Origin: a phage
Direction: 5' to 3' (one strand)
Assembly (NCBI GenBank): GCA_029337695.3
Contig: GCA_029337695.3_4851.1
Length of the DNA: 46,785 nucleotides
Part shown: in pieces, positions 2,199 to 45,456 of the stretch
How the letters are laid out: the number at the start of each line of letters is the position of its first letter
Position numbering within the stretch: position 1 is the stretch's first letter
Made by a program: the position numbers and the translations under genes
The notes under the pieces: model-generated
Seen by the model: only the letters and a program-made list of their open reading frames with translations
Database searches by the model: none
Told to the model about the DNA's origin: nothing

Positions 2199-2275
2199 TG
2201 GTGGACACGGAGGGATTTGAACCTTCAATCAGCCGATTATGAGTCGGTTGCTTTAACCAATTAAGCTACGCGTCC
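2199..2275 (-). tRNA. tRNA with CAU anticodon (Met or Ile2), CCA encoded
   Basis: Hand-folded 77 nt: acceptor GGACGCG/CGTGTCC (one G-U), D-stem GCTT/AAGC, anticodon loop CTCATAA, T-loop TTCAAAT, discriminator A, CCA. One mismatch each in the anticodon and T stems. Confidence 0.7.
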
Positions 2276-14084: not shown

Positions 14085-14594
14085 TCAGAAGGGAATATCG
14101 TCTTCGAAGTCCATCGGCGGCTCATTTACTCCTTGTGTGCTTTGCTGTTTTGGTGGCTGCTGCTGTTGTTGATTTGTTACACATCCGCCTTGAGGTTGTT
14201 GGCCTGATTGCTGGCGTGGTTGTTGCTGACCAGAATCATCACGCTTACCACCAAGCATCTGCATGACTCCGCCCATCTGTGGGATAACAATCTCAGTGGT
14301 ATATCTGTCTACGCCGTTGCTGTCAGTCCACTTACGAGTGCGTAGCTGGCCTTCTATATAAACCTGAGAACCTTTGCGAAGGTATTCTCCTGCAACTTCC
14401 GCAAGTTTCCCGAATATTACCACGCGATGCCATTCAGTCTGTTCTTTCTTTTCTCCTGTTTGCTTGTCTTTCCACTGCTCAGATGTTGCAACAGAAAGGT
14501 TGGCAATTGAAGAGCCTGATGCTGAATATTTAACTTCAGGGTCGTTACCAACTCGACCAAGGATTATGCACTTATTAATACCAATCGAAGACAT
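14085..14594 (-). CDS. ssb: single-stranded DNA-binding protein
   Basis: OB-fold-like N-terminus, Gln/Pro/Gly-rich linker and acidic C-terminal tail ending DDIPF. Confidence 0.85.
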
Positions 14595-15112
14595 TACTTG
14601 AATCTCCCGTTTTTATCTCTTAATCTGCCATTATGATTCTCTGTGGCGTGTAATGATGCGTGCTCTGACTTCGTCATAAGCATTAGGTTACTTGGATGGT
14701 TGTTTGTTTTATCATGGTCTATATGATGAACGCATTCATTGTGAAACAACCTCCTCCCAATAATGCCTTCCATAACTACGACATGCTCTCCTCTTCCTTT
14801 GTTTTCACCCATAGTTATCTCGACATAACCATTCGGTTTTACAGAGCGACCCTTGCCAACTCCTTTCTTTGATTTTGATATATTTTGCTTCCATTCTTCA
14901 GTAAACTTTCGTTTTTTACCCCTAAGTCCTGAACCAAGTCTTCCCTCTGCGGCAGCAATTCTTATTGCATCTCCTCTGCTTCTCAATATTCCGGCTTTCT
15001 TAAATCTAAACCTCAATGTTGACATGGCTATTCCTGTTTCATTGGAGATTTGAGGGATGCTCATGCCAGACAAATACATATCAAACTCATTCATATGCAC
15101 CTCCTTGTGCAA
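14594..15112 (-). CDS. HNH homing endonuclease with N-terminal HTH
   Basis: C-terminal [27 protein letters not shown]; inserted between ssb and erf. Confidence 0.75.
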
Positions 15113-16844: not shown

Positions 16845-17270
16845 TCAATCCACATCAAAAGGCAAGCCAAAATAGAAAAGTGTGGCTTTTTTTAGTTCAT
16901 CAAGACCGTAAGCGATGGCGGCATAATGACCAAGTCTGCACATCTCAGTTAACACAGAAGATTGCTCTTTACTTACTCTGCTTTTGCTTTTATCGCGACG
17001 CTTTGACTCAATCATCCCGCAACTGTGATTTACCCCAGGAGTCATTATCACGTTGTCGCCTATTCCAGTCTTAACTCCCATCTTCTGGCGCTTCAGCACA
17101 AACTGCACCATGCTTGATGTTCCAGTTTCGTTTGGTACATGAAACCACAGAACATCAGGAAAGCGGTGTTGCATCCATGTGCCGTAACCAATCTGTTCAG
17201 TCTCCTCTTTCGGACATTCTCCGCGATAACCGCTATCAAATACCCATATACCGCTATCAAGCTGCTTCAC
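16845..17270 (-). CDS. VRR-NUC domain nuclease
   Basis: 141 aa with HVPNETG...KRQKMGVKTGIGDNVIM fitting the VRR-NUC pattern; coupled to the helicase. Confidence 0.55.
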   Translation of the reverse strand: MKQLDSGIWVFDSGYRGECPKEETEQIGYGTWMQHRFPDVLWFHVPNETGTSSMVQFVLKRQKMGVKTGIGDNVIMTPGVNHSCGMIESKRRDKSKSRVSKEQSSVLTEMCRLGHYAAIAYGLDELKKATLFYFGLPFDVD

Positions 17271-19194
17271 TTTGTTCTCCTGTAAAATCTTTTCTGTGGA
17301 TTATGTCTCGACCTTTATCATTGATACGATGCGTGATGCGTTTTGGCGATTTAATCAATCCCGCATACATCATGAATTGCTTGGCGTTCTGGCATTTCAG
17401 AATTTTCCCAGCTATTGATTTATCATCAAGGTGAGGGAAGATGGCCTTTACCTTGAACATGTTTTTCATGTGGGTTGCTCCGCCGTAAGGGTAGAAAACC
17501 TCGTTAGCCCAGCCTTCTTTGCCATCACAACGATTAATCCAGTAGCGATATAAAATTCCCTCTCCGTCCTTCGTCAACTGGACCTTGAAGTCCATAACAT
17601 CAGCCCATTCGTTGTCGGTATACGCACGCTCATTCAGTGCCGCATTCGGGTCGCGCAAAACGTGATCGCAATGTCGGCAATAGCGCGCCGTTGGGTCGTT
17701 TTTAGTACCACATCCATCATCAAAAATGCGGATTCCGTGCTTATCAAAACCGCAACGGATGTAACTGAAAAACTCTTCGCAGCGACCATCTGGAGATAGT
17801 GCATCTTTGCCAATACAGCGTCGCGCATATGGGCTGTTCATTGTTCCGCACTTAGGACACGGAACCTGTTCGCCACTGCGTTTTGAACGTTGCGCTTCAG
17901 CCTCTTCCAGTATTGGGTCTTCATACAGCTGACCAAGCTCAAACATCGTTCCTGAGAAATCCAGAACCAAATGGTCTTCTTTATGATACCCGGCATCAAT
18001 TTGCTCTTTCTTCAGCAAGCGCATTCCGCGACCAAGCAACTGAACAAGAAGAGTGAGTGACATTATTTTTCGCAATATCACGCTTGTATCCCAAAGCGGG
18101 ATGTTGACGCCAGTCGTCAAACAACCAATCTGGAATACATACTTAATCTTGCCAGTGTATGCGTCTTTTAACGCCTTGCGTCTGGCTTTCTGTCCCATAT
18201 CCTCGGTGACGATAGCATAACTTCCTTCGGGTAAATATTTAGCCGCTTCCTGACAGTGTTTTTTGCCAGCGCATGTAATCAATACGCCGTTCCTGTTTTT
18301 AGTCAACTCCATAACCTTGAGCATAATTTTCTGCGTCAGCGTACCTTGCTCAAGGATTTCTTTTTGCATCTGCTTGAGCTGCTCGGCAGTGAAGTCCTGC
18401 GTGCCATCGCTTCCTGACGCTTCAAATGCTGACAGGTCGTAATGCAAATCATCAATATCATGCAGGCCAAAAATCGTAGGCACAAGAAACCCAATATCAA
18501 CAAGATATTTGGTGTCAATGTTTACTATTTCATGCTTCCAGTAAGCACCCTTAATCGAGTCTGTGCCACGAAACGGGCTGCCTGTGTATCCAATAACAAT
18601 GACATCGTGACCGTACTTATCCTTACATCTGCGGTTAAGTTCAGTCATGATGACGCCATATTGCGTTTCAGGACTTTCGCTTACCACGTCCTCCCAGTTC
18701 ATCTGGTGGCATTCGTCAATAAGGATATAGCGAGGGCAAAAATCTGAAAGTGCACCTTTAGAAAGAATATTACCTGAGTCATCCTTCTTATCGAAAAGGC
18801 CATTTATTATTGTTCCCTCAGTGCCAGCAATAAGAGGGTATGCCGTTGACTTTCTGCCAAGAGACGCGCTGAATAGTGAGTTTTTAACACTCAGATTCCA
18901 CAGCTCTTCCGCATCCTGCTCAATAATCTCTCCCTGACGTGCAATAACAAGCCCTTCCCAACCCATATCCTGAAAGCGCCGCGCAATCATGGCAATCATG
19001 ATCGTCTTACCAGCACCTACCGATGCCGTCACAAAACTTGGTTTCGGGTCTCTGCCAAACTTGCGGATAACTTCAGCCGTCTTTTCATAAACCAGCCATT
19101 GATATGGTCGCGGCTCAATTTCCCCTGTATGAACAACCGACCGCAATTTATCTATGTCAAGTTCCGCAATCATTGCGTCTATTTTATGCGTCAT
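17257..19194 (-). CDS. SF2 DEAD/DEAH-box helicase with C-terminal zinc ribbons
   Basis: Walker A VGAGKT, DECH box ILIDECHQM, C-terminal CxxC clusters. Confidence 0.8.
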   Translation of the reverse strand: MTHKIDAMIAELDIDKLRSVVHTGEIEPRPYQWLVYEKTAEVIRKFGRDPKPSFVTASVGAGKTIMIAMIARRFQDMGWEGLVIARQGEIIEQDAEELWNLSVKNSLFSASLGRKSTAYPLIAGTEGTIINGLFDKKDDSGNILSKGALSDFCPRYILIDECHQMNWEDVVSESPETQYGVIMTELNRRCKDKYGHDVIVIGYTGSPFRGTDSIKGAYWKHEIVNIDTKYLVDIGFLVPTIFGLHDIDDLHYDLSAFEASGSDGTQDFTAEQLKQMQKEILEQGTLTQKIMLKVMELTKNRNGVLITCAGKKHCQEAAKYLPEGSYAIVTEDMGQKARRKALKDAYTGKIKYVFQIGCLTTGVNIPLWDTSVILRKIMSLTLLVQLLGRGMRLLKKEQIDAGYHKEDHLVLDFSGTMFELGQLYEDPILEEAEAQRSKRSGEQVPCPKCGTMNSPYARRCIGKDALSPDGRCEEFFSYIRCGFDKHGIRIFDDGCGTKNDPTARYCRHCDHVLRDPNAALNERAYTDNEWADVMDFKVQLTKDGEGILYRYWINRCDGKEGWANEVFYPYGGATHMKNMFKVKAIFPHLDDKSIAGKILKCQNAKQFMMYAGLIKSPKRITHRINDKGRDIIHRKDFTGEQSEAA

Positions 19195-19269
19195 AGCAAC
19201 TAACCTTTGTTGATGTTTCTACGTCAGTTAGCTTATACTCAATCTACACCAACAATCAAGGGCCAATTT

Positions 19270-20223
19270 ATGAGATACGACTGGAAAGACATTGAGCCAA
19301 AAATGCTCGGCAACTGGCAGGCCGCCATCATGTCTATCGTCAATGTGGATAGCAGAGTTTTCAATGGCAAGCACCAGCCGTGCCCGTCATGCTCAGGCAA
19401 AGACAGATATCGCTTTGATGACAACTTCGAAAAAAAAGGCGATGGCGGTGCAATATGCAGTCAGTGCGGTTCCGGTAGCGGTATGAACTGGCTGATGAAA
19501 CTCTCCGGCATGAGCTTTCCTGAAGCACTTGAGGCGCTGGGAGGATTCCTGAACATGCACCCTCGTGAAAAACTTGAGGCAATCAGGAAGGAGATACCGA
19601 AGATAAATTACAACGATGACTTCATCACCGAGCAGGAAGTCGCCGCAATCATGGCTAAAACGACGCGTGTCGCGATGAATGAGTGGACTTTGATAAATGG
19701 TATTGGTTGCGACGTTAATGTCGTCAGAGGGAAATCTGGAGAGCTTATTGCGGTTGAGATGATGCGCGCTGACACAATGAAGCCGTGCAACGTGGCATTC
19801 ATTGGCGTGGATGGTGATGCATTCAGAACATTCTACAAAGCAGGGTACAACAAAGACTCAGCCATCAACGGTAAACTCACTCGCGGCGCGATAAGCACAA
19901 TAGGTGAAGACAACGGAAAGTTCATTTATCTTGTTTCTGATTATGCCGATGCGTGGAAATGCCATTACTTCACTGGCGCTCATGTCTGGTGCTGCTGGTC
20001 GCCGGAAAACATGTGGGAAGTGGTGCGTTCTGTTAGCGATGAGACGAAAGCACGGTTACGCTGCATAGTTAATTATAAATTTGACGAACTTTGCGCCGCA
20101 GAAAATGCAGGACTACCGGTGATGCTGCCTGATGATGCGGACACTATCAGGATGGCGAAGAGAATCAGGAGAAAGATTTATGACGCTGGCGAGTTGATAG
20201 AAAAAATGTCAGTCATCAGATAA
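19270..20223 (+). CDS. DNA primase (zinc-ribbon type)
   Basis: N-terminal CPSCSGKDRYRF...CSQCG zinc-binding motif; divergent from the helicase. Start set at MRYDWKD downstream of the promoter motifs. Confidence 0.6.
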   Translation: MRYDWKDIEPKMLGNWQAAIMSIVNVDSRVFNGKHQPCPSCSGKDRYRFDDNFEKKGDGGAICSQCGSGSGMNWLMKLSGMSFPEALEALGGFLNMHPREKLEAIRKEIPKINYNDDFITEQEVAAIMAKTTRVAMNEWTLINGIGCDVNVVRGKSGELIAVEMMRADTMKPCNVAFIGVDGDAFRTFYKAGYNKDSAINGKLTRGAISTIGEDNGKFIYLVSDYADAWKCHYFTGAHVWCCWSPENMWEVVRSVSDETKARLRCIVNYKFDELCAAENAGLPVMLPDDADTIRMAKRIRRKIYDAGELIEKMSVIR

Positions 20224-20252
20224 AAGAAACCCTCCAATCGGAGGGTTTTGTT
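20224..20252. terminator. bidirectional rho-independent terminator
   Basis: AAACCCTCC-aatc-GGAGGGTTT hairpin with T-run between convergent genes. Confidence 0.75.
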
Positions 20253-20667
20253 ATTCCTTGAACTCTGGCGCTTCAGGCCAGAAGGCTATATTTCGCAGCG
20301 ACTTACCTGTGTGATTGCACCAGTATATTCCTGAGTCATCATACTTGGCAGTAACCTTGACGCGATCAGCATCAATAATAACAACCTCCTGTCCATCTTT
20401 AGGATCGAAAAGACGCGCATCTTTCCAGTTAGCAATCTCATTAAGGGAAAGAAGGACATAACCAGGAAGATAAGCGCCGACATCAGCGATGTGAACTATA
20501 GTTCTCTCTGTTCTCTCTCCTGTGTAGTCTCCATTCCACTCATAAAGAATGATCGCGTCTCCAATCTTAAAGTCACGGTCATTCTTTCTTAGTTCCGCCT
20601 TCTTGTGTCCGGTAACTACAGGCCAGAAGTGTTCAGGTAATATTTTAAGTTCGTGTGTTTTGCTCAT
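20251..20667 (-). CDS. DUF3850 (ASCH/PUA-like) domain protein
   Basis: N-terminus THELKILPEHFWPVVTGHKKAELRKNDRDFKIGD matches the DUF3850 signature; coupled to the upstream 530-aa gene. Confidence 0.6.
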   Translation of the reverse strand: MSKTHELKILPEHFWPVVTGHKKAELRKNDRDFKIGDAIILYEWNGDYTGERTERTIVHIADVGAYLPGYVLLSLNEIANWKDARLFDPKDGQEVVIIDADRVKVTAKYDDSGIYWCNHTGKSLRNIAFWPEAPEFKE

Positions 20668-22259
20668 TACAACCCCCTCATAAATCTCATGCGCTTAACG
20701 GCAGCGGAAAGATAATTTCTAACAGTTGAGTTCATCCGCAGACCATCCCATGAACCATCACTACACATCTTAATTGCTCTTGGATTATCCCTGTCCAGCA
20801 TTAGTGGTGAATGTTTGTTCTCCTCAATAGCAAGGAGAACTTCATAAACAAATTTATCCGGCGTTAATGTGATGTTGTTCGAGTCAGCAGAATTGATTAT
20901 CTTCTCAACTCTGTCACGGCACAGCTTGTTCTTTATAACAGACAAGTAAGGCGTTTTAATGAATGCCTGTGATTCACAAATTCGCTTTATTTTTTCAACA
21001 ATATTCGACCACTCAGTATTCTCAAGCCCATCAAATGCCTGTTCACCCTCAAGGAATCTTTTCAGCCCCGAGAGGTGTTCAAGAACAGTGAGATAACCCC
21101 ACTCGATATGCTCCGTCGTAACTGATGGTGTCATTCCCTGACGACTTGACAGATCGGTATACGCCGCCAGAGTTGCAAGATCGACAATCATTAGACCCAT
21201 GCGAGGGATAACATCACCAACAACACCATCGCAATCACCAAGCTCACTTTCCAGTTTCATGGACAGAGATCTGTGCAGTTTTTTCGCATTATCATCAGCC
21301 CATACAACGTTAGTTTTCGCGGTAAGAACCCTACCTTTCCACTCATTGATTATTTTTCTTGAAAGCGTACCACTCACTTCCACATCCTTCATCGCTGGCA
21401 TTTCCTCACCAGCAAGATGCCCAAGCTGGAACAGTACGCGCCCCATACCGCCATCTTTCTGCCATGAACGCGCAGCATCTATTCCCTGCTCTGGCGTGAC
21501 AGTAATCAGCGGAACAAATTTTGCGTTTTCAATTCCACCGTCTTTTGTTGCAATTTCGTACTCATTCATTGCCGACTTTAGCGCTCTCCCAACGCTGTGG
21601 TCCATCATCGCAAGGCGCTTATAATCTATGACTCCTTTCCCATCATCGCCACCAGTAAGTGGCACTATCCATCCCTCAGCACTTGCTGCAGCCATGATGC
21701 GTTTTGGGTTTTGTTCCCACGTAAGGTTTTCAAGCAACTCCTTGATTATTGGTCTGTTAGGAACCCACACGCCGCCATCAGTTAGGCCTCTATACCACGC
21801 CATAGTACCGCCAAGATATGCATTGCGCGGGTTGTTCCAGTCTTCAAGATGTTGCTTGTCATCGTTAACAACGTAGAGCAAAGACCCGCCTCCAGCAATC
21901 AGGTCCAACTGCATCTGTTTCGTCGAGGTTGATTTGGATGCGCAAACTCTGGACCCTATTCCCAGTGCATTGGCATATGCCCTGACGAAACTCACCGGGG
22001 CGCCCTTACCTGCACCAGAGCGAGCTACCAGAAATATGCCAGTATTGCAGATACTACCTGTTGGACCAATCAAGTATCGTCCAGCCATCGCCTGAGCAAG
22101 ACCCAAAGCGCCAGTTAAACGATATCTTCCCCCGCCCTCACGGCGCTCAAACCCCCTTGCGATCTCATCCATAAACTCACCAAGTGCACCGGGAGCCTCC
22201 CGCTTTATGCCCATAGCCAGAGACTCAAAATCAATTGAACTCATCAATACACCCTCCAT
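20667..22259 (-). CDS. large hypothetical protein with degenerate P-loop-like motif
   Basis: 530 aa; VARSGAGKGAP (Walker A-like but Gly at the S/T position) and LLYVVNDDKQ (Walker B-like); no family recognised. Confidence 0.5.
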   Translation of the reverse strand: MEGVLMSSIDFESLAMGIKREAPGALGEFMDEIARGFERREGGGRYRLTGALGLAQAMAGRYLIGPTGSICNTGIFLVARSGAGKGAPVSFVRAYANALGIGSRVCASKSTSTKQMQLDLIAGGGSLLYVVNDDKQHLEDWNNPRNAYLGGTMAWYRGLTDGGVWVPNRPIIKELLENLTWEQNPKRIMAAASAEGWIVPLTGGDDGKGVIDYKRLAMMDHSVGRALKSAMNEYEIATKDGGIENAKFVPLITVTPEQGIDAARSWQKDGGMGRVLFQLGHLAGEEMPAMKDVEVSGTLSRKIINEWKGRVLTAKTNVVWADDNAKKLHRSLSMKLESELGDCDGVVGDVIPRMGLMIVDLATLAAYTDLSSRQGMTPSVTTEHIEWGYLTVLEHLSGLKRFLEGEQAFDGLENTEWSNIVEKIKRICESQAFIKTPYLSVIKNKLCRDRVEKIINSADSNNITLTPDKFVYEVLLAIEENKHSPLMLDRDNPRAIKMCSDGSWDGLRMNSTVRNYLSAAVKRMRFMRGL

Positions 22260-22573
22260 ACGCGCAAGAATTTACCCTGGATAACACCATGTTTCACCGT
22301 TAACACAGCACCCACCCTGTCAGCCTCAAATTTTAGCGCCTTCTGAAGTGACGTCATTGTCATCTGAAAACCTCGCTCTATATCGTATGCGTAGCACCCA
22401 TCTCTTCCACCAATCAAAATTGAAGTTGAATACCCGTTCTCAAAGTAAAACTGACACCCATCAGGAGCGGTAAGATTATTTATCACGTCGTGAGCAAGCG
22501 ATGTCGTAACAGGGAATATCGGCGCGCAACTCATACTCACCTCACTCAACTCGCTTAATATGCAAAACTTCAT
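22244..22573 (-). CDS. hypothetical protein
   Basis: 109-aa ORF (possibly starting at an internal Met) overlapping its neighbours. Confidence 0.4.
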   Translation of the reverse strand: MKFCILSELSEVSMSCAPIFPVTTSLAHDVINNLTAPDGCQFYFENGYSTSILIGGRDGCYAYDIERGFQMTMTSLQKALKFEADRVGAVLTVKHGVIQGKFLRVWRVY

Positions 22574-22790
22574 CGAAATATGAGCACGTTCTGAATTTCA
22601 TCCCGAAATCCTCACCAACCCTTCCGAGACACGCGCGAAATCTTTCAACAGACAGCCCTTTATCTGCAATATCCTCATAAGAAATCGAATTAACCTGACC
22701 AACATCAATATGTTTTGCAACGCGATACACGAACTCCATCTTTGAACCGTCACGATACATTTTGTTTCTCATAGTAACCTCCATCCGCAT
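22542..22790 (-). CDS. hypothetical protein
   Basis: 82-aa ORF, first gene downstream of the iteron region on the minus strand. Confidence 0.4.
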   Translation of the reverse strand: MRMEVTMRNKMYRDGSKMEFVYRVAKHIDVGQVNSISYEDIADKGLSVERFRACLGRVGEDFGMKFRTCSYFDEVLHIKRVE

Positions 22791-22940
22791 CCTGTTAGCA
22801 ACTATAGATAAAAAATAAAATTAACGCAACACAAAACAGGGCTAACCAGCAACAACAGCTACCACACCTAACAACTGGTCAGACCACCATCTCGTATCTG
22901 ATGTATGTGGATGGTTCCCGTCGTTCAATTTGCACTCGAT

Positions 22941-23299
22941 TTTTACCTAATTTACCGTATATTTATTGGTCAGTTTTTTGCGTAACTAATTGATTTATAT
23001 GGTTTTACCGGTTTTACCGGAGCTCTAAGGAGTATTTTCATCATTGAGAGTAGTAGTATATTAATTGGTCTAATTTTTAAATAACCCTAATAAAATCAAT
23101 ATATTAATATAAGAAAGTAACTTACTTACTTATATAGGATTTACCGGGTAAAACCGGTAACTCCTCCGCAGCCCGCGTCATTACTGGATTGATTTTTACC
23201 ACCTGTAGGTAAATACAGTAGTTTTTAAGTCAGGATTGTTTTTGTAAGATGTTGATTACCGGTACTTTATTTGAAAAACCGGGATTTACCGGGTTTTTG
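22941..23299. repeat. AT-rich iteron array (TTTACCGG-type), candidate origin or regulatory region
   Basis: About 600 bp without ORFs; copies at 22941-22960, tandem GTTTTACCGG x2 at 23001-23020, inverted TTACCGG/CCGGTAA at 23141-23160, palindrome 23195-23215, TTACCGGTA at 23255-23264, ACCGGG repeats at 23275-23299. Confidence 0.6.
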
Positions 23300-23370
23300 T
23301 GGTGTGATTGATAATCGCGCAATTAGTCATGTTTCACCAGAGCTCACTGATGCGACACCTGAAAATCATA

Positions 23371-23400
23371 TTGACGTAGAATCACAACTGATGTAGATTG
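23371..23400 (+). promoter_or_regulatory. putative early promoter with two inverted copies of the AATCTAC motif
   Basis: TTGACGTAGAAT (23371-23382) and TGATGTAGATTG (23389-23400) upstream of the first + early gene. Confidence 0.45.
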
Positions 23401-23429
23401 AACTCATCGAAACAAACGAGGGTGAAGAG

Positions 23430-23615
23430 ATGAAAGAGGAAAGCACGTACGACATCGACCAGATGAAGTTGTTCAGCGATATATGCATGGCATTGTCACA
23501 ACAGGTTCCAAGCCTTCCTGCTGACACGCGTTCAAATGCCATCATTGATGCAGCAAACATGATTTGCGAGGCTTATGCGATGAGTGAAGATGAATACAAG
23601 GCTTTGAAGAAATGA
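23430..23615 (+). CDS. hypothetical early protein
   Basis: 61-aa ORF, first of a coupled series of small ORFs. Confidence 0.4.
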   Translation: MKEESTYDIDQMKLFSDICMALSQQVPSLPADTRSNAIIDAANMICEAYAMSEDEYKALKK

Positions 23616-23707
23616 CAGGCGCAACACTCGAACTTATCGCCAGTCTGGTTATCGTGGCATTCATCATTATCGCAGTGGCAGTTTCCAAGTCGGGGTATAA
23701 GGAGTAA
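23612..23707 (+). CDS. small hydrophobic peptide (31 aa)
   Basis: MTGATLELIASLVIVAFIIIAVAVSKSGYKE; ATGA overlap with the upstream stop. Confidence 0.35.
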   Translation: MTGATLELIASLVIVAFIIIAVAVSKSGYKE

Positions 23708-23795
23708 CAAAATGAGCAACTGGCATAACGAACACATCATGCAGTGGTATCGCCGTCGCATTAAGGCAATCATTAACTCTTATGAGGTTTAACAA

Positions 23796-23978
23796 ATGGC
23801 AAAGACAATCTATCGCCGCGAGAAACTGGAACCAGAACTCGGTCACGTTGGCGCGCAGCACTTTATGAGCAAGCAGGCACGCAATGCAATGGAATCTACC
23901 CGCGTGAATCGCGTTGTGCGCGTGTTTAATGGCGAAGGTAAGCGCAGAGTAATGGATGAGCTGATTATCGTGTTCTGA
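23796..23978 (+). CDS. hypothetical protein
   Basis: 60-aa basic ORF. Confidence 0.4.
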   Translation: MAKTIYRREKLEPELGHVGAQHFMSKQARNAMESTRVNRVVRVFNGEGKRRVMDELIIVF

Positions 23979-24014
23979 CCTCGATTCAGCTACCTTATTT
24001 TTAATGGTGATGAT

Positions 24015-44434: not shown

Positions 44435-44650
44435 TTGAGTTATCCTTGTGTCTAATTGAGATTTGTAAAACAAATCAATACTTCCAAATGCTTTGTATTC
44501 AAATTTACCATTTTCGCGGCAAACCCGCTTTTCAAACCCATAATTGTCATTATTTGCCGTCCATGTTGTCACAGATAAGAAACCACTAGCCTGGACTATT
44601 GCGCCATTACCATCCCTGTCGCCGAACTTTATAATTTTGTAACGCATCAC
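44432..44650 (-). CDS. hypothetical protein
   Basis: 72-aa ORF coupled between the ParB-like and downstream genes. Confidence 0.4.
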   Translation of the reverse strand: MMRYKIIKFGDRDGNGAIVQASGFLSVTTWTANNDNYGFEKRVCRENGKFEYKAFGSIDLFYKSQLDTRITQ

Positions 44651-45456
44651 ATCTTCTCCAGAATTGCCATAACCTCGTGAATGTCAGCAACAGGAATCTG
44701 GATAAACTCCTCATCCTCAGCCACCACATGACCAGCAGGAAGAATCACGTGATCTGCTTGCTTCAACAGCTCAATCAGGCGGTCTACTGGCTTAATCTTT
44801 TTGGACTTCAGCACTTTGGCTGTGACCTTATCCTTGCCTTGCGCCTTCGCTTCCTCGACTGCCTCGTCGATAACTTTAACCGCATCATCGCCATGTTCGC
44901 GCGTTACCGCTACGGCGTTTGCATAGCTGATTTGCCCTGCACTGATTCGTGCCTTCACTTCCGCTGGCAAATCACCCAATGACAGGTGCATTTGCACGTC
45001 AGATACTGAGCGACCTACCTTCTTAGCGATTTCCTCATTAGTCCAGCCAAAGCCTTTCAGTCGCGTGTAAGCCTTTGCACGTTCAAACGGGTCGAGCTGC
45101 TTGCCCTGGCTGGATGACACCATGAAGGCAATTTTATCCGCCTCATCGCCAGTGAAATCTTTGCACTCAATGCGAACGATTGGTGCGCCACGCTCAATGG
45201 CACGCAATGCGCCGAGATAGCGGTGCTGACCATCAAGAATGCGAATTCCCTTCTCGTCTGGAATAACTGTTAATGCTGGTAGTGGCTGGCCTGATTCCCA
45301 GCACTGCGCAAAATATTCAACGTGTTGCTCATCTGCTTCACGGATGTTGTATCCCGGCTCCAGATAAATTTGCTCCACTGGTACGAGATAGGTTTTGTTT
45401 ACCGCAATGCCGTTGCGCGTCTCTTTGTCTGAATAGATTTTGCTGAGTGTTTTCAT
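44647..45456 (-). CDS. ParB-like N-terminal domain protein with HTH
   Basis: ParB-box-like IRILDGQHRY and HTH segment WTNEEIAKKVGRSVSDVQMHLSL. Confidence 0.7.
   Translation of the reverse strand: MKTLSKIYSDKETRNGIAVNKTYLVPVEQIYLEPGYNIREADEQHVEYFAQCWESGQPLPALTVIPDEKGIRILDGQHRYLGALRAIERGAPIVRIECKDFTGDEADKIAFMVSSSQGKQLDPFERAKAYTRLKGFGWTNEEIAKKVGRSVSDVQMHLSLGDLPAEVKARISAGQISYANAVAVTREHGDDAVKVIDEAVEEAKAQGKDKVTAKVLKSKKIKPVDRLIELLKQADHVILPAGHVVAEDEEFIQIPVADIHEVMAILEKM

Follow-up and report, generated by a model that had tools for sequence, protein, structure and literature searches.

The open reading frame (ORF) of 530 codons that lies on the minus strand of a 46,785-nucleotide stretch of phage DNA (contig GCA_029337695.3_4851.1 of GenBank assembly GCA_029337695.3; this whole stretch is referred to as the window) probably encodes the hexameric replicative helicase of the phage, a highly diverged, Pfam-negative member of the MCM-like AAA+ helicases of the DUF3987 family (PF13148) or superfamily 6 (SF6). 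We put this explanation, taken as a whole, at a probability of about three in four. New is the highly diverged and so far unannotated member, while the DUF3987 (MCM-like) family of replicative helicases is already known. The initial annotation of the window could not place the protein in any known family, which is correct for direct sequence searches of Pfam, NCBIfam and PDB but not for profile and structure searches. The latter lead to a described family, DUF3987/SF6, and the DUF3850 gene next to it behaves as a passenger.

The ORF is the third of four on the minus strand, all of which are present as initially described:

22790-22542, minus strand: longest ORF of 82 amino acids (aa); likely product 76 aa from a start at 22772, with GGAGG upstream

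22573-22244, minus strand: longest ORF of 109 aa; likely product 96 aa from a start at 22534

22259-20667, minus strand: longest ORF of 530 aa; likely (probably helicase) product 525 aa from a start at 22244

20667-20251, minus strand: DUF3850/ASCH ORF of 138 aa, the last gene of the transcription unit

The stop/start overlaps reported earlier exist as well and amount, in this order, to 32, 16 and 1 nucleotides between the longest ORFs. When starts are refined with the help of Shine-Dalgarno sequences and the annotation of relatives (internal starts), a gap of 7 nucleotides separates the stop of the 76-aa gene from the start of the 96-aa gene at 22534, the start of the 525-aa helicase gene is joined to the preceding stop by a TGATG overlap, and the helicase stop and the ASCH start share a TAATG overlap. 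The four genes thus follow one another closely, and translational coupling between them is plausible.

The family assignment is carried by profile comparisons. In an exhaustive search of 1.84 billion proteins, the family profile matched Pfam-positive DUF3987 proteins, namely P0023 (E 2.8e-8), P0024 (E 9e-8) and P0048 (E 5e-4), which reach 40.5, 35.3 and 43.8 bits with the Pfam DUF3987 model and local scores of 105, 81 and 44 bits with a hidden Markov model (HMM) of the 14-sequence core family. Weaker matches were proteins of 450-1150 aa with Pfam DUF3987 that align in their helicase portion, many of them carrying fusions to Prim-Pol, PriCT-2, NrS-1-polymerase HBD or DnaB-N. Twelve of the 25 aligned relatives match DUF3987 at E<=1, and the C-terminal part of PHROG_3022, annotated as 'DNA primase', matches the 530-aa protein at E 3.6e-11. 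The helicase family itself is rare. It occurs in 11 of 50,697 phage records, comprises 10 representatives (50% identity clusters) at E<1e-30 among the 1.84 billion proteins and yielded just 6-10 proteins in a word-indexed homolog search, even with the alignment as query. NCBIfam and PADLOC searches with the 530-aa protein returned nothing, a PDB sequence search with it gave noise only (e.g. subtilisin, E 0.18) and a PDB profile search with the 25-sequence alignment gave nothing.

DUF3987 proteins have been classed as SF6, MCM-related phage replicative helicases which usually adjoin or are fused to a primase and carry a winged helix-turn-helix at the C-terminus (PMC4889955). The 530-aa protein resembles the DUF3987/SF6 helicases gp30 of Shigella phage DS8, VIP0048 of Salmonella phage Vi II-E1 and AgaPH in its MCM-like AAA+ core, lid and small C-terminal domain, in its length of about 520 aa, in the conservation of the lysine, an acidic residue, the Arg finger and sensor 2, as well as in the adjoining primase, the small ORF in front and the identical slot in sister phages. 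The polarity of MCM is 3'-5'. Among DUF3987 helicases, ATP-dependent DNA unwinding has been demonstrated for AgaPH only, a PriCT-DUF3987 protein that acts as a 5'-3' helicase and depends on Walker A and B (PMC11724360).

The structure prediction that the initial annotation proposed is in agreement with this assignment. While a 7-sequence alignment led to an unusable AlphaFold model, with a predicted local distance difference test (pLDDT) score of 46.7, the 25-sequence alignment resulted in a confident one, in which the 530-aa protein is predicted to adopt an MCM-like AAA+ fold with a lid and a small C-terminal domain. It matches over its full length the 'replicative DNA helicase' gp17 of Salmonella phage LPSTLL and primase-fused relatives, the primase/polymerases of Serratia phage Eta, Pantoea phage LIET2 and Brucella phage Pr, with template modelling (TM) scores of 0.75-0.80. 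All of these belong to the same non-canonical branch, and LPSTLL gp17, which likewise has a Walker A without Ser/Thr, occupies the same slot behind an 88-aa ORF. LPSTLL gp17 and the primase-fused relatives differ from the 530-aa protein, to which they are about 18% identical, in keeping GK[D/E] and hhhhDE. Furthermore, many relatives in the LPSTLL branch are fused to Prim-Pol, PriCT or TOPRIM, whereas the primase is a separate, convergent gene here. A large DUF3987-like branch (P0017-P0058, with many Prim-Pol/PriCT fusions) has a Walker A of the type [ST][GA]xGK[E/D], in which an acidic residue takes the place of the expected Ser/Thr; the Pfam DUF3987 model covers only the C-terminal half of these GK[E/D] proteins. 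Archaeal and eukaryotic MCM proteins (PDB 3f8t, MCM2-7) are more distant. Identity amounts to 8-14%, the N-terminal OB/Zn domain of MCM is absent, and the 530-aa protein has a mostly helical insert of about 100 residues between Walker B and sensor 1. At the modelled C-terminus, helices at 439-446, 450-459 and 467-479 are followed by a hairpin at 486-498, so that this part of the helicase (approximately residues 436-505) looks like a winged helix.

The nucleotide-binding site of the protein comprises the following elements:

Helicase residues 79-86, Walker A: A79-RSGAG-K85-G86 (ARSGAGKG), not the canonical GxxxxGK[S/T]

Helicase residues 129-134, Walker B region: YVVN132-D133-D134 (YVVNDD)

Helicase T255, R274 and R353: sensor 1, Arg finger and sensor 2, respectively, with roles assigned by position in the model

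Both the deviant Walker A and the hhhhNDD motif had been recognized initially; the description of this P-loop as degenerate, on the other hand, is not upheld. Across 25 diverse sequences, G84, K85, S112, G270, R274 and R353 are invariant and T255 is nearly so. The predicted Arg finger R274 precedes beta-5 in a GxxGRxhF motif, which may be compared with the SRF motif of MCM. D133 is also invariant and aligns with the catalytic glutamate; the Walker B motif reads hhhhDE in distant relatives, mostly DD in the core family and N132-D133-D134 here. The residue following the Walker A lysine is E in 19, D in 11, G in 8, Q in 5, S in 3, N in 2 and K in 1 of the proteins of the branch, while the DS8-type branch has PPSxGK[S/T]. 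The 530-aa protein is thus set apart from DUF3987/SF6 helicases of that type by GK[G/Q/S/N] in place of PPSxGK[S/T] and by (N)DD in place of DE. This branch-wide residue pattern, together with the invariant D133, indicates that the absence of Ser/Thr characterizes the branch as a whole (GK[E/D]; GK[G/Q/S/N] here) and represents a lineage-specific variant of the site rather than decay. Since Lys85, Asp133, Arg274 and Arg353 stay invariant, the predicted ATPase is probably active, though this is not assured, and since Walker A lacks the usual Ser/Thr throughout the branch, Mg2+ is presumably bound differently.

The genomic setting bears on the same question. The region shares 96% identity with Escherichia phage vB_EcoS_ASO78B, and its close relatives further include the BASEL phages Bas77, Bas80 and Bas81 as well as ZCEC08, Jersey-like siphoviruses of about 46 kb. 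In the records of all these relatives the four genes are listed as 'hypothetical protein', the ASCH gene occasionally as 'RNA-binding protein'. Sister phages without the 530-aa family have a canonical DUF3987 'DNA helicase' (Pfam DUF3987 E ~1e-34), with a small ORF in front, in the same slot, which is bounded by the primase/ASCH side and by the divergent intergenic region; this is seen in DS8 (gp30/gp31), Vi II-E1 (VIP0048/0049) and KE12. In LPSTLL a third, GKD-type version is found there, which is Pfam-negative and scores 81 bits against the family HMM. At least three mutually unrecognizable helicase versions of one fold, canonical DUF3987, GKD-type and the present family, therefore occupy this slot, and each brings its own upstream small ORF and its own intergenic repeats (DS8, Vi II-E1, KE12 and LPSTLL were compared). 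Nucleotide similarity to DS8 ends at about 20,684, the ASCH/helicase junction, and returns at about 23,371, a short way upstream of the first early gene on the plus strand, with flanks on both sides that are more than 90% identical between the two phages. Because similarity stops and resumes at these points, the helicase gene forms, together with the small ORFs and the entire intergenic region that bears the repeats (~20,684-23,370), one cassette that is exchangeable among Jersey-like siphoviruses, and the slot 20684-23370 is a hot spot for the exchange of replication modules in these phages. A promoter-like site, TTGACG-17-TAGATT (23371-23399, plus strand), is situated at the exact point at which similarity to DS8 returns; the early promoter of the plus strand thus seems to be part of the conserved flank and not of the cassette.

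The two small proteins encoded ahead of the helicase are related to each other. The 96-aa protein, with its C-terminal motif KFLxxWRV, is an ortholog of an ORF of about 90 aa found in swi2, BUCT541 and the P0005 (three metagenomic) contigs, where it overlaps the start of the helicase gene (BLASTP E 9e-12 with swi2 gp22). The 76/82-aa protein is a shorter paralog of this family (BLASTP E 6e-6 with the N-terminus of swi2 gp22; PHROG_28700 at E 8e-5) and is about 40% identical to a 73-aa ORF of Salmonella phage KE12, as seen by tblastn and context. As the latter ORF precedes a canonical DUF3987 helicase, the small-protein family, judged from these sequence relationships, accompanies different helicase branches. 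Neither singly nor as a profile did the small proteins match Pfam or PDB entries. DS8 gp31 was considered as a further relative and rejected; it gives a weak AP2 match, but the alignment is unconvincing. The small ORF upstream of the helicase is an annotated pseudogene in Vi II-E1 (VIP0049; locus L006, 7448-7749) and is absent in KLB16 (locus L005, 3437-3835), and for this reason the small partner may be dispensable in some lineages. A role as specificity factor, loader or regulator is conceivable for these proteins.

The operon begins beside an intergenic region with repeats and an AT-rich segment:

22942-23292: about ten (A/T)TTTACC(GG) repeats, a candidate origin (iterons), possibly also operators

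23071-23110: core of 90% A+T between two repeat clusters (A+T per 40-nucleotide block), a candidate DNA-unwinding element

That the iteron-like repeats are real and non-random, as initially proposed, is borne out by their frequency. TTACCGG is found 13 times in the window, with 2.45 occurrences expected and none of 100 shuffles reaching 13, and 6 of these 13 sites fall within the 288 bp from 23005 to 23292; for TTTACC there are nine sites in 22942-23290. Tandem pairs 9 bp apart (22942/22951 and 23004/23013) and inverted pairs (23140/23152 and 23195/23213) are accompanied by further copies at 23256 and 23285, so that the layout of an iteron origin is present: short repeats in both orientations, an AT-rich segment between them and a putative initiator gene nearby. 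Related motifs cluster at the same place and in the same layout in swi2, the P0005 contig and BUCT541:

swi2 cassette: AGTTACCGG, 11 of 11 locus copies in the intergenic region

P0005 contig cassette: AGTTACCGG, 8 of 8 copies in the intergenic region

BUCT541 cassette: (A/T)GTTCCCG, 11 of 12 copies in the intergenic region

Within the helicase family the repeat motifs are accordingly TTTACCGG, GTTACCGG and GTTCCCG, and cassettes with a canonical helicase have unrelated repeats, of the CTGCCCCACG type in DS8 and Vi II-E1 and of the ATGCCC type in KE12. KLB16, which has no small ORF, shows a weaker repeat pattern as judged by eye. The change of repeat sequence with cassette type suggests a cognate origin, and as DS8 and the phage studied here differ in their repeats despite flanks that are more than 90% identical, the specificity determinant should be encoded inside the cassette. 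The identity of the helicase C-terminal domain tracks repeat type: it is 61% for the swi2-type protein (51% overall) and 46% for the BUCT541-type protein, which reaches 57% overall and 63% over the AAA+ core. The identities of the small proteins do not discriminate in this way in the four lineages compared. A function of the winged-helix-like domain as repeat-specificity determinant is only suggestive at present.

A sequence of events can be put forward on this basis. The helicase would recognize the TTTACCGG repeats, probably by means of its winged-helix-like C-terminal domain, of the small partner proteins or of both, and open the AT-rich core. Unwinding of DNA for the Zn-ribbon primase encoded nearby would follow, with synthesis presumably performed by host polymerase, much as with P4 alpha or SaPI Rep. 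In these two systems a C-terminal DNA-binding domain reads short iterons that flank an AT-rich region near the protein's own gene, the initiator has a Zn-ribbon primase and the polymerase of the host as partners, and its specificity changes together with the iterons. P4 alpha combines an SF3 helicase and its primase in one protein, and SaPI Rep belongs to DUF927. The present locus differs in that we infer iteron binding, and in its two extra small proteins. A more far-reaching combined proposal, which we regard as tentative and somewhat on the doubtful side of even, holds that the GK[E/D] branch, with its GK[G/Q/N] twig, binds Mg2+-ATP differently, without a hydroxyl residue and in an otherwise intact AAA+ site, and that in addition the winged-helix-like domain of the helicase, perhaps together with the undescribed 75-96-aa partners, reads cassette-specific iterons. 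The initial annotation had considered an unrecognized initiator/loader set acting on the adjacent origin. Its replication direction is sustained by an MCM-like AAA+ homolog beside a primase and by co-varying repeats; unrecognized the set is not, as it falls into the described DUF3987/SF6 helicase family.

Several observations weigh against assignment of the protein to the replicative helicases and against the origin function of the repeats. The Pfam match to DUF3987 is sub-threshold (12.7 bits compared with a gathering score of 27; E 0.073) and restricted to residues 265-386; in this the 530-aa protein departs from bona fide DUF3987/SF6 members, and divergence of its N-terminal half, which bears Walker A and B, has gone too far for the Pfam model. 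The DS8-type branch escapes the core HMM, and alignment of the core family with an independent DS8-type profile by hhalign is weak (E 0.0096, probability 4%) and confined to the C-terminal half. Pairwise BLASTP comparison with DS8 gp30 and the KE12 helicase gave no match either, and direct homology to the DS8-type sub-branch is not claimed. Walker A lacks Ser/Thr and the position of the Walker B aspartate is taken by Asn132, which leaves ATPase activity not assured. The winged-helix assignment derives from the secondary-structure topology of the model, and the argument from domain identities draws on four lineages. The cumulative GC-skew minimum of the whole window lies at 22-23 kb, at the divergent intergenic region, and is consistent with an origin; GC skew was nevertheless set aside as evidence for one because the change from minus- to plus-strand transcription confounds it. 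Finally, the repeats could be operators, as they are located among divergent promoters.

This last point leads to the alternative that survives best, namely that the TTTACCGG repeats are not iterons but operators of divergent early promoters bound by the 76- and 96-aa proteins as regulators. The helicase assignment would be unaffected by it. The repeats are indeed placed between divergent units, with promoter-like hexamers at 23035-23105 and 23371-23399, the small-protein family occurs with different helicase types, and autoregulators are common among small proteins encoded at the head of an operon. However, direct and inverted copies flanking a core of 90% AT are typical of iteron origins, the repeat pattern is weaker in KLB16, where the small ORF is missing, and it is the helicase C-terminal domain, not the small proteins, whose identity follows repeat type. 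We consider the operator explanation rather unlikely, although operator and iteron roles of the repeats are compatible and not mutually exclusive.

An improbable alternative is that the 530-aa protein is not a translocating helicase but an AAA+ initiator or helicase loader with attenuated ATPase activity, whose task would be to mark or melt the origin or to bring in a helicase of the host, for example DnaB. The unusual Walker A and Asn132 would suit such a protein, but the AAA+ initiator/loader clade (DnaA, DnaC, Orc/Cdc6) is not its closest fold, and the catalytic and sensor residues named above are retained.

The last gene of the operon matches DUF3850 with 69.7 bits (cut-off 22.9; Pfam E 2.4e-19), confirming the initial identification, and ASCH with 22.0 bits (cut-off 21.2; E 2.7e-4). 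The PUA-like DUF3850/ASCH domain occupies residues 1-75, of which residues 4-75 align with PDB 3iuw ('activating signal cointegrator') at E 3.3e-10. The 138-aa protein differs from DUF3850/ASCH proteins in general by a C-terminal extension of about 60 residues (76-138; window 20251-20440) without family match. DUF3850 has been described as PUA-like and phage-enriched (bioRxiv 10.1101/2025.10.10.680097). We found the domain in 536 phage records, which span many unrelated types, with T7-like, P2-like and Gram-positive phages among them; the full-length form with the extension is present in only 9 of these 536. In DS8 a 96% identical ASCH protein follows a different, canonical DUF3987 helicase after a gap of 82 nucleotides, and in swi2, BUCT541, KLB16 and the P0005 contigs members of the helicase family occur without an adjacent ASCH gene. 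It is because of this spread, the pairing with another helicase in DS8 and the absence beside several family members that the ASCH gene, though co-transcribed here, is regarded on comparative grounds as an independent accessory passenger on the conserved flank. The idea of a nucleic-acid modification or recognition module made up of the four genes, with the ATPase and the ASCH/PUA-like protein acting together, could appeal to the ability of PUA-like domains to bind modified bases or RNA and to the TAATG overlap of the two genes, but it is largely refuted by the distribution just described, finds neither a modification enzyme in the operon nor a PADLOC defence model matching any of the four proteins at E<=1, and is very improbable.

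The ASCH gene is also the only one between the helicase gene and the primase gene, which are 444 nucleotides apart; the primase adjoins the helicase in all relatives as well. On this side of the operon the following features are found:

20226-20249: bidirectional intrinsic terminator that separates the convergent primase gene from the minus-strand operon, annotated in ASO78B too

19207-20223, plus strand: Zn-ribbon DNA primase (P4-alpha/T7 type), Pfam Zn_Ribbon_Prim E 1.3e-11, convergent with the operon

The primase matches PHROG_510 DNA primase at E 2e-80, covering just the first half (8-347) of this 667-position profile, and is the expected primase partner of a DUF3987 helicase. Other genes among the scanned ORFs near the replication region code for an SF2 helicase of 645 aa, exonuclease VIII, an Erf-like annealing protein, a single-stranded DNA-binding protein (SSB) and an HNH endonuclease. 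Neither a second helicase of the hexameric type nor a polymerase was present among the scanned ORFs, in a scan that covered part of the genome and included no search directed at polymerases. A phage helicase and primase working with host polymerase would fit the gene content scanned.

The SF2 helicase (ResIII + Helicase_C; 17257-19194, minus strand) has two C-terminal zinc-ribbon motifs, at about residues 446-461 and 495-513. In relatives, an HNH endonuclease gene separates the SF2 helicase gene from the primase gene (at locus coordinates L001 2688-3209, L003 6966-7541 and, in DS8, L007 3122-4126), none is present at 19194-19207 here, and the HNH endonuclease of this window is encoded at 14594-15112; the difference is a presence/absence polymorphism of a homing endonuclease. 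Elsewhere in the window a ParB-like protein (44647-45456, minus strand; PHROG_1033, E 3e-91) and a single tRNA-Met (CAT) gene (2199-2275, minus strand) are encoded. An Rfam scan of 19,800-24,000 gave no hit above threshold.

A function can now be proposed for a protein that is 'hypothetical' in all 11 phage genomes carrying its gene, among them those of the BASEL reference phages Bas77, Bas80 and Bas81. The general understanding of phage replication is unchanged by this, and the locus is mostly ordinary. The non-canonical Walker A across the whole DUF3987 branch is a modest, testable enzymological oddity, and the slot lends itself, as a natural system, to the study of origin specificity and of the exchange of modules. 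If the tentative combined proposal on nucleotide binding and iteron recognition is true, a self-contained and exchangeable module of origin and initiator-helicase would set replication specificity in Jersey-like phages.

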